Of a DNA stretch of 64,000 bases, positions 1-3,569 are shown piece after piece. This stretch comes from Chitinophagales bacterium. GTDB taxonomy: Bacteria > Bacteroidota > Bacteroidia > Chitinophagales > BACL12. Each line of letters begins with the position of its first letter. Positions within the stretch are counted from its first letter, which is position 1. Under the pieces are notes generated by a model. The model ran no database searches, had not been told where the DNA came from, and saw only the letters and a list, made by a program, of their open reading frames with translations. The stretch covers positions 45,297 to 109,296 of the forward strand of contig JAWKLB010000004.1 of NCBI GenBank assembly GCA_041392955.1, read 5' to 3'. The position numbers and the translations under genes were made by a program.

Positions 1-175
1 CGCTGGATTTGTCTACTGTAGGGCTACCCACCAGCACTTTGCCATCCGTGTCCTTAAGCAGCACTTCGCTGAACTCCAGTTTATCGCCTTCGTTGCCTTG
101 CTGGCGGTGGACAAAGATCTCTTGGTTTTCCTCCACCTTGAACTGTTGGCCGGCTATGTTTACTATCGCGTACAT
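1..175 (-). CDS. rplU: 50S ribosomal protein L21, N-terminal part (the gene runs off the left window edge)
   Basis: It is absent from the ORF track because it is truncated. Reverse-strand translation from the ATG at 175-173 reads [57 protein letters not shown], a canonical L21 N-terminus. The plus-strand ORF 9..245 is its antisense shadow. Confidence 0.85.
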
Positions 176-195
176 GATTTTCGAAAATGAAGATG

Positions 196-228
196 CAAAG
201 GTAACTATTTGGCGGATAATTAACAAAG
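196..228 (-). promoter_or_regulatory. Candidate Bacteroidota-type promoter for rplU
   Basis: On the minus strand, TAccTTTG (203->196) matches the TAnnTTTG -7 box about 20 nt upstream of the rplU ATG. A TTTG (227->224) lies 20 nt further upstream, like the -33 element. Confidence 0.4.
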
Positions 229-306
229 GGGTTGGAAAAAATTAATACAGAGGGTTAACGAGGCCACAAAGGCACTAGGACTCGAAGAAACCACAAGGAA
301 AAAGTT

Positions 307-364
307 ATGTACCGAAGGTGGGACTCGAACCTGCCTGACTGCGTCAGCAGGCAGGCCCACACGC
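307..364 (-). repeat. Partial duplicate of the tRNA-Leu 3' end, interrupted by a 26-nt GC-rich hairpin
   Basis: Positions 307-329 and 356-364 are together identical to 645-676 (32 nt). That span covers the T-arm, the acceptor 3' strand, the discriminator and 3 nt beyond the tRNA at 648..732. The 26 nt at 330-355 (cctgcctgactgcgtcagcaggcagg) form a CCTGCCTG/CAGGCAGG stem inserted between the T-stem and T-loop. Confidence 0.85.
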
Positions 365-634
365 CTATGAGCCCTTAGTTATTTTTTCTTCCATTTTTTT
401 GAGGAATCTTTTGCCTGCAGCACTTTTGAAATACTTTTCCCGAATTCTTGCTTGGGGCCTATCATTACAGTTTTCACTATATAAAAGAAAAAATGGCCTA
501 TAGGGCTTGGTGGTCCGTTCATAACCACCGTTGTGCCTTTCAAGACGAGCATTCAGATTAGAAGTCAATCCAACATAAATGTAATTCCTGCTTAAACTTG
601 AAATTGCATACACCACAAATCCCATCTCGATCAA
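365..634 (-). CDS. GIY-YIG nuclease family protein (89 aa, catalytic domain only)
   Basis: The ORF translation FVVYAISSLSRNYIYVGLTSNLNARLERHNGG...KPYRPFFLLYSE...AR.REKYFKS..GKRFLKK fits the small GIY-YIG (UPF0213/COG2827-like) pattern. The gene starts 13 nt downstream of tRNA-Leu on the same strand. Confidence 0.85.
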   Translation of the reverse strand: MIEMGFVVYAISSLSRNYIYVGLTSNLNARLERHNGGYERTTKPYRPFFLLYSENCNDRPQARIREKYFKSAAGKRFLKKMEEKITKGS

Positions 635-647
635 TCAGAAGTAAATG

Positions 648-732
648 TACCGAAGGTGGGACTCGAACCCACACGCTTGTTGAGAGCACCGGATTTTGAG
701 TCCGGCGTGTCTACCAATTCCACCACTTCGGC
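648..732 (-). tRNA. tRNA-Leu (anticodon CAA), type II with long variable arm
   Basis: Hand-folded: acceptor GCCGAAG/CTTCGGT, anticodon stem CCGGA/TCCGG with loop CTCAAAA, T-arm GTGGG-TTCGAGT-CCCAC, discriminator A. No CCA is encoded. Confidence 0.93.
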
Positions 733-746
733 GCAGAAAGGAAGCG

Positions 747-754
747 CAAAAGTA
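747..754 (-). promoter_or_regulatory. Candidate -7 promoter box for tRNA-Leu
   Basis: The minus strand reads TActTTTG (TAnnTTTG consensus) about 15 nt upstream of tRNA position 1. Confidence 0.35.
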
Positions 755-890
755 ACAGTCTATCCTCCAAGGAGCAAGCCCCACTTAAAATAAACTTTCA
801 ACCCTTCTGACACCTTATGACTCCTTGTGACCCCTTGGCGCCTTTGAGCCCTGGTGGCCTCGTACTACTTATTTCTGACGACATACAAAT

Positions 891-919
891 AAAAAAACGC
901 GCCCGTTGCCGGACGCGCT
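891..919 (-). terminator. Rho-independent terminator downstream of the outer-membrane protein gene
   Basis: The minus strand reads AGCGCGTCCG-GCAA-CGGGCGCG followed by T7, about 25 nt after the stop at 943. Confidence 0.7.
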
Positions 920-942
920 GTAAACCGCTAAGTATTGAATAA

Positions 943-2109
943 TTATTTGATATAGTCGTTCTCTGAACCGGGTGCGTGCTCATCCATTTTATGCCTGTAC
1001 AAGCGGAAGGTGTAGGTCAGAAATACCGTATAATCGGCAAAAGCTGCATCCCCATGTTTATACACATCATTGGAAGGATCTGCATCGGTGGCAAGCAAAT
1101 CCGTCCAGTTCTCATCTGCCACACTTCTGGTCCTGTTCCGGTAAACGGCTATCGGCACATTCAAAGTGAACTGGTGCGGCCCGTTCTGGTAGGTCAGACC
1201 CGGATCCACATTTATGATATATCCCGGACGGCGGAAACCATCGGTCTCACCGATCAGATCATGCACCGGAATTCCCTCATAGCGCACACCTGCACTGATA
1301 CCCAATCCTTTCACGAAGGAAGGGAAGTATGATATTCCACCGCGCACCAAAAATTGATCCGGCACGGACATATGTTGCTCGAAAGGATTGCTGCGATAGG
1401 TAGCTGCATCAGTCGTATCCTTCGGATTGAATAAATAGAATAAGGTATAATATCCATACAAGGTATTGCTCACAAATTCCATGAAACCCTGCGATTCTAC
1501 ACTGAAACCAAACCCGCCATCACCCAATTGAATGGATTGATCCACTTCGCGGTACACATCCGTGTAATCTTCACCTTTATATTGGAAGGTGTCCATCGCA
1601 TTATATTTTCCGGTAGGCAATTTTATACCCAATCCGAGTGAGAAATTACCTTTATCATGTTCGTAGGTGTCGAGCATCCATCTGTTCAACGTAAAACGAA
1701 CATCTCCCAACCCGAAGGATCCGGTTTCTATCCTCACTTTCGTAGAGTCTGTATTACTTGCTAATTGCGATCGCGTATTATCTATGATCGGAACATCTGC
1801 TGAGATATTCCATTGCTTATTCAAACCATACGTATACACCAGATCGAATGCATGTACATGATTGATCACATTGGTCTCTTCCTCCACGCGTTCGAATTGC
1901 TCCACATCGCCAACGAAATGTTTGTATGATTTGAAATAGCGATAATTCAAACTGAAGTCCATATCGCCCTTATCTAATAGTGCAGATCCCTGAACAGCCA
2001 TGTTCCCGGCCACTGAACGGATCCCTACGCAACCCTGTCCGAATAACGGGCTGCCGGAAATTGCACATACTATGGTACATACAATAATAGTGTGGTAAAA
2101 TCTTTTCAT
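943..2109 (-). CDS. Putative outer-membrane beta-barrel protein with signal peptide
   Basis: 388-aa ORF with an N-terminal signal-like segment MKRFYHTIIVCTIVCAISGSPLFGQ. It shows alternating aromatic/hydrophilic beta-strand patterns throughout. I did not recognise a family confidently. Confidence 0.6.
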   Translation of the reverse strand: MKRFYHTIIVCTIVCAISGSPLFGQGCVGIRSVAGNMAVQGSALLDKGDMDFSLNYRYFKSYKHFVGDVEQFERVEEETNVINHVHAFDLVYTYGLNKQWNISADVPIIDNTRSQLASNTDSTKVRIETGSFGLGDVRFTLNRWMLDTYEHDKGNFSLGLGIKLPTGKYNAMDTFQYKGEDYTDVYREVDQSIQLGDGGFGFSVESQGFMEFVSNTLYGYYTLFYLFNPKDTTDAATYRSNPFEQHMSVPDQFLVRGGISYFPSFVKGLGISAGVRYEGIPVHDLIGETDGFRRPGYIINVDPGLTYQNGPHQFTLNVPIAVYRNRTRSVADENWTDLLATDADPSNDVYKHGDAAFADYTVFLTYTFRLYRHKMDEHAPGSENDYIK

Positions 2110-2199
2110 TTGCCTGCTTTTAGCCCGACAAATGTAGACTTAGCATTTACCGATACAGTTAATGTAGTTCAAAACTTTGTTAATGCAATGTAAATATGT

Positions 2200-2712
2200 T
2201 CAGGCGAACTTTTCCATCTGGCCGCGAATGCGTTGAAGATATTTGCGTTTGTAGTAGAATTCCTTGATGGCAGTGAGATCTTCTTCCGATGCATGCATAA
2301 TATCGACCTCTTGGAGAAAAGGTATCATTGCCTCTGTGATGTCTGTTTCTGCTTTGCGCAGCTGTTCTTCTACCTCTTCTTTTTTTTCGGGATCGAAGGC
2401 CAGTTCTTCCACCATCATATGGAGGTCCATCATTTCCATGAGGAAAACTTGCGGCAGACTGTATTTCTCCTCTTCCACCAGATGACCTGTTTCCTTTAAG
2501 ATATATTGCAGTCGCTTATCCGGATCGCGCAGCGTATGGTATGCCTTGTTATTCAGCGTAGAAAGTGCGAGTATCTCGGCTTGCTTTTCAGGAGATGCAT
2601 GTGTGTAAAAATCGGGATGGTATTGTTTGCTCAACTGCAGATACTTCTGCTTGATCATATCCACATCGGGCATGCATTGCACCGGTATCCCAAACCATTC
2701 AAAATATTTCAT
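2200..2712 (-). CDS. hscB: Fe-S cluster assembly co-chaperone HscB-like J-domain protein
   Basis: J-domain with an HPD motif (KQKYLQLSKQYHPDFY...LNNKAYHTLRDPDKRLQYIL) and a helical C-terminal half. Size is 170 aa. Confidence 0.7.
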   Translation of the reverse strand: MKYFEWFGIPVQCMPDVDMIKQKYLQLSKQYHPDFYTHASPEKQAEILALSTLNNKAYHTLRDPDKRLQYILKETGHLVEEEKYSLPQVFLMEMMDLHMMVEELAFDPEKKEEVEEQLRKAETDITEAMIPFLQEVDIMHASEEDLTAIKEFYYKRKYLQRIRGQMEKFA

Positions 2713-3569
2713 TTACCTGCGTTGGCCTGCAGACTATTTTCAATTCTGCCGGTTAAAAAATTCGCGATCAGGGGAAAATTCAAACCTATGATATCATCGA
2801 TATCTGTTTCACCGCTGGAAAATTTTACGGTAACAGCTTCTCCTGCCAGCTGATTTCCTTCTGCATCATATAAAGAATAATGTACGATCACTTTGCGTTC
2901 AAAATAATTGGCGGTGCGGTCCAGACAATGGTTGTAATTCGTCACCAATTCGAACTGATTAATGAACAGAAACATGTCTGTTCCATATGCAGCTTTCAGG
3001 TTTGCAAATATCTCCGGATGTGTAACCACGGCATTCAGATACCTGGTATTCTCCGATGTCACCACATCATCTTCTTCTTCAGCTTCGTCTTCCTTTTTGA
3101 ATAATTTGTTTTTCTTATCCTTTTCCATATCCGGTGCAGCACCACCATTGCCGAACAGATCCGGTTCGTTGATGGCATGATCTGCATCCGCATCTTTAGC
3201 ACCCGGAGTCAGGGGTTTTTGCATCTCATAATGTATGGACGAATAGATCATGAACAGATCGCGATCGGATTGCACAGTTGTATCTGTCAGAATATTATAT
3301 GCATCATATGCAGAAACCACACGCGCGCTCACATTATAACTCAAACCGTAGCGGAACATATTGGAAATAGCGGCAGCATCCCTGTCGTTCGCCATCGCCA
3401 ATTCCTGATCAGCGTCAGAAAAATAATTGTAGTTGTTGAAAGGGATGATCATCACCCGGTGTTTTCCGGGTTCATCCTGTATCAGCGCGCCGCTGTTCTC
3501 TGTTTGTGCAGAGAGCGTGGTAATAAAAACACAAAGGAACAACAGGCTGCCTGTGGTCTTATGTATCAT
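2709..3569 (-). CDS. Hypothetical secreted protein
   Basis: 286-aa ORF with signal peptide (LLFLCVFITTLSAQT) and an acidic central linker. Four-nt start/stop overlaps with both neighbours suggest an operon with rseP and hscB. Confidence 0.55.
   Translation of the reverse strand: MIHKTTGSLLFLCVFITTLSAQTENSGALIQDEPGKHRVMIIPFNNYNYFSDADQELAMANDRDAAAISNMFRYGLSYNVSARVVSAYDAYNILTDTTVQSDRDLFMIYSSIHYEMQKPLTPGAKDADADHAINEPDLFGNGGAAPDMEKDKKNKLFKKEDEAEEEDDVVTSENTRYLNAVVTHPEIFANLKAAYGTDMFLFINQFELVTNYNHCLDRTANYFERKVIVHYSLYDAEGNQLAGEAVTVKFSSGETDIDDIIGLNFPLIANFLTGRIENSLQANAGK

Follow-up and report, generated by a model that had tools for sequence, protein, structure and literature searches.

Directly downstream of a leucine tRNA gene in a 64-kb stretch of a Chitinophagales bacterium contig (the window, that is, the whole DNA analysed) lies a compact cassette, read from the minus strand. 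It consists of a gene of about 250 bp for a GIY-YIG nuclease of the SLX1/UPF0213 type (about 80 aa), a partial duplication of the tRNA gene and a GC-rich palindrome, termed here the hairpin palindrome (HP). The intact tRNA-Leu(CAA), which belongs to class II and has a long variable arm, was placed by ARAGORN at 647-732 on the minus strand and matched the Rfam tRNA model RF00005 at 648-732 (61 bits, E=1.7e-12, gathering score 29). Located 14 nt upstream of its start is a putative promoter -7 box, TTACTTTTG (747..755, minus strand), called at 755->747 from its fit to TAnnTTTG, which we take to be the Bacteroidetes -7 promoter consensus. Behind the tRNA, a spacer (626..646, minus strand) in which no terminator-like hairpin was evident by eye leads to the open reading frame (ORF) of the minimal GIY-YIG nuclease (365..625, minus strand; TAG stop 367-365). 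An earlier inspection of this DNA, the sequence-only reading, had taken the ORF as 89 aa (634->365, which begins at a TTG) behind a 13-nt spacer. This distance holds for the TTG (12-13 nt), but the alignment of homologues favours the ATG at 625, which gives 86 aa and a spacer of 21-22 nt.

The partial tRNA copy begins right after the ORF stop. Its inner piece, GCGTGTGGG (356..364, minus strand; equal to tRNA 676->668), comprises the end of the variable arm and the T-stem 5' strand, and its outer piece, TTCGAGTCCCACCTTCGGTACAT (307..329, minus strand; equal to tRNA 667->645), comprises the T-loop, the T-stem 3' strand, the acceptor 3' strand and the discriminator plus 3 nt. Between the two sits the 26-nt HP, CCTGCCTG-CTGACGCAGT-CAGGCAGG (330..355, no strand assigned; in full CCTGCCTGCTGACGCAGTCAGGCAGG at 355->330), a member of the CCTGYCTRCCGRCAGGYAGR family, inserted precisely where the T-stem 5' strand (GTGGG) passes into the T-loop (TTCGAGT), which is canonical position 53/54. 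When this insert is disregarded, the two pieces are identical to tRNA 676->645 at 32 of 32 nt and overshoot the discriminator by 3 nt; a repeat search returned a perfect 25-nt direct repeat (307-331 and 645-669). The 20-mer TTCGAGTCCCACCTTCGGTA, which spans the T-loop and acceptor end, has two exact copies in the 64 kb against none expected (100 shuffles), and the window HP is present as a single copy, again with none expected. The order of tRNA-Leu, GIY-YIG ORF and hairpin-split copy of the tRNA 3' end, as described in the sequence-only reading, was confirmed to the base by ARAGORN, Rfam, Pfam and the 32-nt identity. The outer piece probably represents the tRNA gene's original 3' end, now displaced, with the native downstream flank behind it. 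Folded as single-stranded DNA, the window fragment stacks the HP stem on the T-stem and leaves the T-loop as a 7-nt bulge (-13.9 kcal/mol, z=-2.8); as RNA, T-stem and HP form a stable stacked hairpin (-25.7 kcal/mol). Because contigs of three separate wastewater metagenome runs yielded the identical sequence for window positions 1-2200, in full-length or abutting pieces without differences, the locus is not an assembly artefact.

The encoded protein belongs to the GIY-YIG superfamily: it matched Pfam PF01541 (E=2e-13, 50.9 bits against a curated cut-off of 22.6, profile positions 3-74 of 78) and carries the conserved Tyr/Tyr/Arg/His/Glu pattern, the catalytic-type residues Y20, R30, H34, N35 and E66 being invariant across 27 aligned sequences. 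At least 306 close relatives of 75-130 aa were found, with up to 75% identity, and their named sources are nearly all Bacteroidota, with the addition of Ignavibacteriales. When 1.84 billion cluster representatives (clusters at 50% identity) were searched with a profile, 1,989 clusters matched at E<=1e-10, all of them short and single-domain. Mean column identity is 64% across phyla, and the protein is, judging by its aligned sequences, under purifying selection.

The AlphaFold model of the 86-aa protein reached a predicted local distance difference test (pLDDT) score of 91.9. When the profile was compared with the PDB, 1ywl (E=2.1e-5) and 1zg2 (E=2.8e-4) came ahead of I-TevI (E=2.3e-3), and Foldseek placed 1zg2, Slx1 and HIGLE at ranks 1-10 and UvrC and I-TevI at ranks 11-14, with moderate scores throughout (E about 1e-3 to 1e-2). 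The nearest sequence and fold relatives are the UPF0213 proteins BH0048 and EF2693 and the SLX1 nuclease domain, which assigns the protein to the UPF0213/SLX1-type (URI) branch; on the modelled fold it resembles structure-specific nucleases of this kind, not I-TevI. It is a catalytic core with no added domain, and none of the DNA-binding domains of homing endonucleases (zinc finger, NUMOD, helix-turn-helix) was found within its 86 aa. The NCBIfam group I intron endonuclease model scored 14 bits, below its cut-off of 56. The term 'homing-endonuclease-like', used in the sequence-only reading, is therefore an analogy and does not denote membership. PADLOC and PHROG models of anti-phage defence and phage gene families gave no match at E<=0.01.

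Eighty genomic loci from Bacteroidota and allied phyla were picked by protein similarity alone. They include isolates (Aequorivita viscosa, Christiangramia antarctica, Roseivirga pacifica, Altibacter lentus, Echinicola arenosa, Algoriphagus lutimaris, Saccharicrinis aurantiacus and Robertkochia solimangrovi) and metagenome-assembled genomes (MAGs) labelled Balneolia, Melioribacteraceae and Chlorobiota. At 72 of the 80 loci ARAGORN detected an intact class II tRNA directly adjoining the ORF on the same strand, either Leu (CAA, TAA, GAG, CAG) or Ser (GGA, TGA), which lay upstream of the ORF in 50 cases and downstream in 22. More distant family members (34-59% identity) likewise follow tRNA-Gly(GCC) and tRNA-Asp(GTC). 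On the far side of the ORF the same tRNA is present again as a partial copy, into which the HP is inserted at a stem/loop junction, and the two forms obey a strict mirror rule: an upstream tRNA goes with a downstream HP (38 loci) and a downstream tRNA with an upstream HP (21 loci). The HP thus sits at the junction distal to the intact tRNA, and one tRNA copy stays intact and functional. The 3' form reads tRNA(1-76), spacer, ORF, [x-62], HP, [63-76], native flank, with an inner piece [x-62] of 7 to 38 nt; the 5' form reads native promoter, [1-23], HP, [decayed 24-45], ORF, tRNA(1-76). The ORF stop always abuts tRNA-derived sequence, or falls within the fragment or the HP, and the same minimal structure recurs in more than 100 units. 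Small GIY-YIG genes ending in the same fragment plus hairpin beside tRNAs, which the sequence-only reading had suggested looking for in relatives, were found to recur across these loci. Its notion of a minimal GIY-YIG cassette that targets tRNA 3' ends gained from this tRNA adjacency and from the presence/absence within one genus and the tandem arrays described below, but the restriction to 3' ends did not hold, given the mirror 5' form in 22 of 72 loci and the Ser, Gly and Asp tRNAs besides Leu. A neighbour-joining tree of the protein, weakly resolved for a sequence of 80 aa, mixes tRNA isoacceptors and both forms, and tandem copies are nearly identical. An identical protein (P0078) on 22 contigs was tried as a mobility test and proved uninformative, its neighbours being always the same.

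In seven of the eight exceptions the tRNA was cut by a contig end, an island or an intron, or was missed at a contig end. Three contigs begin within the 3' part of the tRNA. At two loci (L016 and L042) an integrated island splits the tRNA at the anticodon loop; the split tRNA-Leu(TAA) (1200-1500) contains repeated GGTACAACA motifs there, and the insert has the appearance of one end of an integrase-type island for which the same tRNA served as target. One tRNA-Leu(UAA), in a Bacteroidetes MAG (L019), was missed by ARAGORN on account of a group I intron. The insert of about 270 nt lies between U34 and A35, upstream of a two-unit array (700-1050), at the classical site of the cyanobacterial and plastid tRNA-Leu group I intron, and matched Rfam Intron_gpI with 43.2 bits (E=1e-9), under the gathering score of 50. 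At L052 an intact tRNA-Leu(TAA) just upstream was missed since the contig ends before the ORF stop. Only L045 lacks an upstream tRNA. At L014 a Leu-TAG tRNA lies about 450 nt off and is not adjacent. A contig boundary falls within or beside the cassette at unusually many loci (L006, L008, L012, L013, L017, L021, L024, L034, L036, L039, L052, L057, L058, L061, L063 and L072), which fits the breaking of short-read assemblies by repeats such as arrays and duplicated tRNA ends.

The HP is a conserved GC-rich palindrome of 20-27 nt with a basic 20-nt unit, CCTGYCTRCCGRCAGGYAGR. The commonest forms are CCTGTCTACCGACAGGTAGA, CCTGTCTGCCGACAGGCAGG and CCTGCCTGCCGGCAGGCAGG, and versions with a longer loop include that of the window. 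Positions 5 and 12 covary (T-A in 32 units, C-G in 13). Its insertion points are a small set of helix/loop junctions of the tRNA: at the T arm it follows the T-stem 5' strand (GYGGG^TTCRA, about 55 junctions; in relatives this strand precedes the HP in about 58 of 61 such junctions), and further sites are the D-loop at its 3' edge (GGTAGA^C, about 25 junctions), the anticodon stem/loop junction (CTGGA^TTCAAAA; L040, L063, L128) and the point after tRNA position 9 (L041, L050, L069). Second HPs are inserted after the GGTAGA that ends a first HP (L004, L015, L019, L029). Furthermore, the 27-nt HP occurs both ways round at one site (L026 unit 1 versus unit 2, a tandem inverted pair in L005, and L031 versus L051), and its loop sequences are reverse-complemented between neighbouring units; the occurrence of both orientations points to hairpin dynamics that would act at the DNA level. 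Many family ORFs (L088, L104, L105, L118; proteins P0050, P0097, P0114) continue through the T-stem fragment into the HP and end in ...(A/G)GLS(T/A)DR*, for example ...GLSTDR*. Part of the HP is coding, because the stop of these ORFs is the TAG of its GGTAGA.

Three other identities of the HP were considered, and the evidence supports none of them. It does not behave as an intrinsic terminator: TTCGAGTCCCACC follows it, no T-run is present, and it lies 5' of the ORF in 21-22 loci. It is conserved across unrelated tRNAs and is not a repair footprint of local sequence, and with a single copy in 64 kb it is not a genome-wide repetitive extragenic palindrome (REP). An Rfam scan of the window region and 12 related loci returned the tRNA model only.

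Orthologous sites with and without the cassette were found at one chromosomal position. The context of prs and tRNA-Leu(CAA) upstream is common to 19 Flavobacteriaceae loci, and which of the two forms is present there depends on the genus. Five further Aequorivita genomes were reached via the Prs anchor, and in all five (A. sublithincola DSM 14238, A. antarctica, A. lipolytica, a vladivostokensis-like genome and A. echinoideorum) the prs-tRNA-Leu(CAA) site is empty, with a terminator directly after the tRNA and neither ORF nor HP. The same site is filled by one unit in A. viscosa and by two and four units in two other Aequorivita. This locus, empty in five genomes and filled in three of one genus, displays the presence/absence polymorphism by which homing endonuclease genes are recognised. 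At filled sites a terminator resembling that of the empty sites follows the last fragment, and the element's own spacer or terminator follows the intact tRNA. This implies that the insert entered within or at the end of the original tRNA and that the outermost fragment is the displaced original end. The empty tRNA-Leu(CAA) sites that the sequence-only reading had proposed to look for thus exist in Aequorivita, but none was obtained in the window's own lineage, where relatives of the neighbouring outer-membrane protein (<=61% identity) lay on non-syntenic contigs without any tRNA. Arrays of up to four units are present in 15 of the 80 loci. Their inner units carry the HP and then the element spacer, and the native trailer follows the last fragment only (L044, L010, L031), the pattern expected if units were exchanged unequally in the short outer repeat.

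The ORF lies on the tRNA strand at all 72 loci with an adjoining tRNA. In both forms, the tRNA-derived sequence of the 19 syntenic Flavobacteriaceae loci is immediately preceded by a putative -7 box. In the 5' form this box precedes the fragment, and the intact tRNA has coding sequence in front of it, so that ORF and tRNA must share one transcript. In the window the putative -7 box probably drives tRNA and ORF together, and co-transcription is altogether well supported by inference from gene order and promoter position. A true terminator is present between tRNA and ORF in L031, L044 and L005. In RNA runs, a marine carrier locus was represented by no more than its tRNA words. At three loci of the 3' form (L054, L065, L074) the ORF starts 3-4 nt after the tRNA end, so that the mRNA would be essentially leaderless once the tRNA is processed.

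Given the anatomy of the cassette, its recurrence at Leu, Ser, Gly and Asp tRNAs, the mirror forms, arrays, common strand and shared promoter, the empty orthologous sites and the nuclease fold, we favour, with a probability of about 0.55, a selfish cassette without a promoter of its own that regenerates the tRNA genes into which it inserts. The selfish mechanism is what we infer from this pattern; we place the element among selfish nuclease cassettes, with a substantial chance that it is a new class of element. It would be gained as well as lost, with its own nuclease making the break. The nuclease would nick the single-/double-strand junctions of hairpins extruded by the tRNA-gene DNA or by the HP, and host recombination or repair in the short outer repeat beside the HP would insert, multiply or delete units. 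The HP would represent the element end and would break homology and structure of the leftover copy, leaving a single functional tRNA copy, and the ORF would be expressed from the tRNA promoter, its mRNA being freed by normal tRNA processing. SLX1-type enzymes cut branched DNA at single-/double-strand junctions; by analogy, such an activity in the cassette protein would fit the stem/loop insertion sites and the palindromic partner. A more far-reaching version, to which we give somewhat less than even odds, is a new kind of bacterial mobile element in which a 20-nt palindrome is paired with a minimal, SLX1-like GIY-YIG nuclease. Such a two-part system would recognise DNA hairpin structure rather than sequence when it enters tRNA genes at their stem/loop junctions, and it would restore the tRNA through partial duplication, use the tRNA promoter and leave palindrome-only, non-autonomous derivatives at many tRNA types. 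Its logic would resemble that of REPIN/RAYT pairs (REP-derived hairpin elements and REP-associated tyrosine transposases) or of miniature inverted-repeat transposable elements and their transposases, with another enzyme class and a tRNA-gene niche.

Several points weigh against the selfish cassette. No cleavage, excision or insertion event was observed. A homing model also fits awkwardly with an intact tRNA that restores whatever target site is defined by sequence, and the tRNA specificity finds no explanation in a DNA-binding domain, since the protein has none. No relative was found in IMG/VR viral contigs or in phage or plasmid records, so that no vector for its spread is apparent, and the three wastewater runs show the filled locus with no joint skipping the cassette and no sign of polymorphism in the source population. 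Presence and absence at the prs site could arise from losses only. In different Aequorivita species, moreover, the sequence of the inner fragment agrees with the variable arm of the respective host. This would not be expected from simple donor-templated homing and requires either in-situ duplication or ongoing gene conversion.

The remaining counter-evidence comes from the reverse test, in which metagenome contigs were scanned for GGG-HP-TTCRA irrespective of an ORF, yielding 55 junctions on 47 contigs. A family ORF ends 6-60 nt upstream at 24 of these, eight are too near the contig end to judge, and 23 are without an ORF. At most of the ORF-less junctions the HP-split 3' fragment stands 10-100 nt behind an intact tRNA (Ala, Gly, Arg or Leu), and HP-split fragments are thus more widespread than the ORF. 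One of these junctions (L095) is an ORF-deletion derivative, because the last 13 nt or so of the ORF remain. The sequence-only reading had named tRNA fragments without the ORF as evidence that would tell against it; they do occur, at 23 of 55 junctions, at least one of which arose by deletion. They weaken a strict linkage of ORF and palindrome and do not refute the cassette. TCCCGATAGCTATCGGGA-type palindromes are also present in genomes whose locus is without the GIY-YIG gene, so palindromes may be able to invade redundant tRNA copies without this nuclease. In Aequorivita and Altibacter, pseudo-copies of tRNA-Leu(CAA) carry a palindrome of this second, unrelated family, (G)TCCCGATAGCTATCGGGA, in place of part of the D-loop (L144 at 3265-3385 of the reverse complement, L146, L148, L031 at 1230-1276 and L047 at 1268-1300). 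The L148 pseudo-copy has, in addition, another hairpin, CTCCCCCGAAGTCTCGGGG, where its T-loop would be.

An alternative built on such findings regards the palindromes as independent small inserts, mobile or generated by repair, that invade redundant tandem tRNA copies, with the GIY-YIG protein acting as a mobilising enzyme in trans, by REP/RAYT logic, or being a bystander host gene. It would account for the HP-split 3' fragments without ORF behind Ala, Gly, Arg and Leu tRNAs with their 10-100-nt spacers, for the second palindrome family in Aequorivita pseudo-tRNA-Leu copies at loci without GIY-YIG, for the second HPs behind the GGTAGA of a first and for the flips of HP orientation at the same site. 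We nevertheless regard it as unlikely, since loci chosen by their ORF show a near-universal association with tRNA and HP and a strict mirror rule, the ORF stop abuts or lies in the fragment or HP and many ORFs end on the HP's own TAG, the ORF-less junction of L095 is a deletion derivative, the HP occurs once in the 64-kb window and is not dispersed like REP sequences, and the empty sites are without ORF and HP together. In an RNA-level explanation a host ORF is co-transcribed with the tRNA, and fragment and hairpin serve as a processing, stability or termination signal at the mRNA end. The common strand at 72 of 72 loci, the lack of an evident terminator-like hairpin between the window tRNA and its ORF, the promoter box upstream of the fragment in the 5' form and the stacked hairpin that T-stem and HP form as RNA (-25.7 kcal/mol) or as DNA speak for it, and a hairpin at the outer end, 3' or 5' according to the form, could protect the mRNA.

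The sequence-only reading had offered a similar view, a tRNA-cotranscribed mRNA whose 3' end is set by a tRNA-like signal and a terminator hairpin. Its co-transcription part stands, with the ORF on the tRNA strand throughout and the promoter position of the 5' form; its terminator part is not supported, the HP being 5' of the ORF in the mirror form, devoid of a T-run and present in both orientations at the same site. An RNA-level device of any kind appears improbable to us: besides the missing T-run and the 21-22 loci with the HP 5' of the ORF, true terminators separate tRNA and ORF in L031, L044 and L005, fold z-scores are modest, loops of neighbouring units are reverse-complemented, Rfam contains no matching family, and the gene is missing at this locus in sister species and multiplied in others, unlike a housekeeping gene. 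Direct repeats that run from the T-loop to the tRNA 3' end are the classic footprint of tyrosine-integrase islands, and the repeats could accordingly be read as attL and attR of an island in the tRNA 3' end, the nuclease being leftover cargo. Partial tRNA duplication by integrating elements is documented (PMC9897764), and integrase-type islands do adjoin the cassette in L016 and L042, at the anticodon loop. This attachment-scar reading is nonetheless close to refuted, since the window insert of about 340 bp has the direct repeats of an island but no integrase, GIY-YIG being its only ORF, the minimal structure recurs in more than 100 units and in a 5' mirror form with the HP exactly at the junction, and the inner duplicated length varies from 7 to 38 nt.

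Among known systems, T-even phages harbour free-standing GIY-YIG homing genes, of which T4 segB lies in a tRNA gene cluster. The cassette shares with segB a small GIY-YIG gene among or beside tRNA genes, a patchy distribution in close relatives, a presumed selfish nature and a nuclease target that would lie in neighbouring conserved DNA. In contrast, Seg proteins and I-TevI belong to the I-TevI branch and have a C-terminal DNA-binding domain, whereas the cassette protein is a core of about 80 aa; moreover, the cassette is chromosomal in bacteria, with no phage copy found, and possesses a partial tRNA duplication and a palindrome that seg genes are without. Size, fold and catalytic motif are shared with UPF0213/COG2827 proteins (E. 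coli YhbQ, B. halodurans BH0048, E. faecalis EF2693) and with SLX1. We know of no embedding in tRNA genes, palindrome or copy-number polymorphism for these proteins, and a literature search on YhbQ with GIY-YIG found nothing. SLX1 acts with SLX4, whereas no partner is evident for the cassette protein. Like tyrosine-integrase islands and prophages, the cassette keeps the tRNA by means of a replacement end, leaves a partial tRNA copy as direct repeat and prefers the T-loop and anticodon-loop regions, but it differs from them in its size of about 340 bp, the lack of an integrase, the HP at the junction, its D-arm/5'-side forms and its tandem arrays of whole units. REP/REPIN sequences with their RAYT (IS200-like TnpA) offer another parallel, with short GC-rich palindromes that accompany one small nuclease-type gene, near it or away from it and in both orientations. 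The cassette does not belong to them, its enzyme being a GIY-YIG nuclease and not an HUH Y1 transposase, and its HP, of which the 64 kb contain one copy, lies within tRNA-derived sequence, where stem and loop meet, instead of being dispersed between genes. The distal repeats of the E. coli tyrT operon are 178-bp units that each contain a tRNA-Tyr 3' end and encode the small Tpr protein. They resemble the cassette as tandem, co-transcribed units downstream of a tRNA with a tRNA 3'-end copy and a small ORF; they differ in having no nuclease, palindrome insert, mirror form or broad phylogenetic recurrence. The impression of the sequence-only reading that the arrangement had no prior description was upheld, as none was found in full-text literature searches aimed at this arrangement, nor in Rfam, PADLOC or PHROGs.

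If the cassette is an active element, it would rank among the smallest self-contained nuclease-based mobile units in bacteria and would, to our knowledge, be the first in which a structure-specific SLX1-type GIY-YIG enzyme resides inside tRNA transcription units without destroying them. It would also assign a function to some of the UPF0213-like proteins, a large and uncharacterised family (the profile matches about 2,000 clusters at 50% identity, E<=1e-10), account for many calls of 'tRNA pseudogenes' or partial tRNAs and for contig breaks beside Leu and Ser tRNAs in Bacteroidota assemblies, and offer a system for studying hairpin extrusion at highly transcribed genes. With culturable strains of both kinds, carrier and empty-site, within one genus, the hypothesis is directly testable.

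In the window the cassette has an outer-membrane transporter-like gene on one side and rplU, encoding ribosomal protein L21, on the other (flanking regions 1-175, minus strand, and 943-2109); in the source contig (L081) rpmA lies beyond rplU. For the outer-membrane gene, the best relatives come from Chitinophagales and Sphingobacteriales MAGs and reach only 53-61% identity, which indicates that the source organism is poorly sampled. A 42-nt imperfect inverted repeat (258-299 and 822-863; 30 of 42 positions complementary, with perfect ends of 10 and 8 nt) encloses the promoter-tRNA-ORF-fragment module. Both arms consist of degenerate 8-nt periods containing AAGG, and the pair is unique in the window and did not occur in shuffles. 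Flanking inverted repeats as general element ends were rejected: 63 other testable loci have no comparable pair, the median best match being no better than that of shuffles. Additional metagenome contigs and loose ends map to window positions 822-864. At another locus (L121, reverse complement, 1584-1665) an intact tRNA-Leu(CAA) lies between the arms of a perfect 14-nt inverted repeat, TATAAATATTCAAA and TTTGAATATTTATA, which would lengthen the acceptor stem in the precursor or in DNA.

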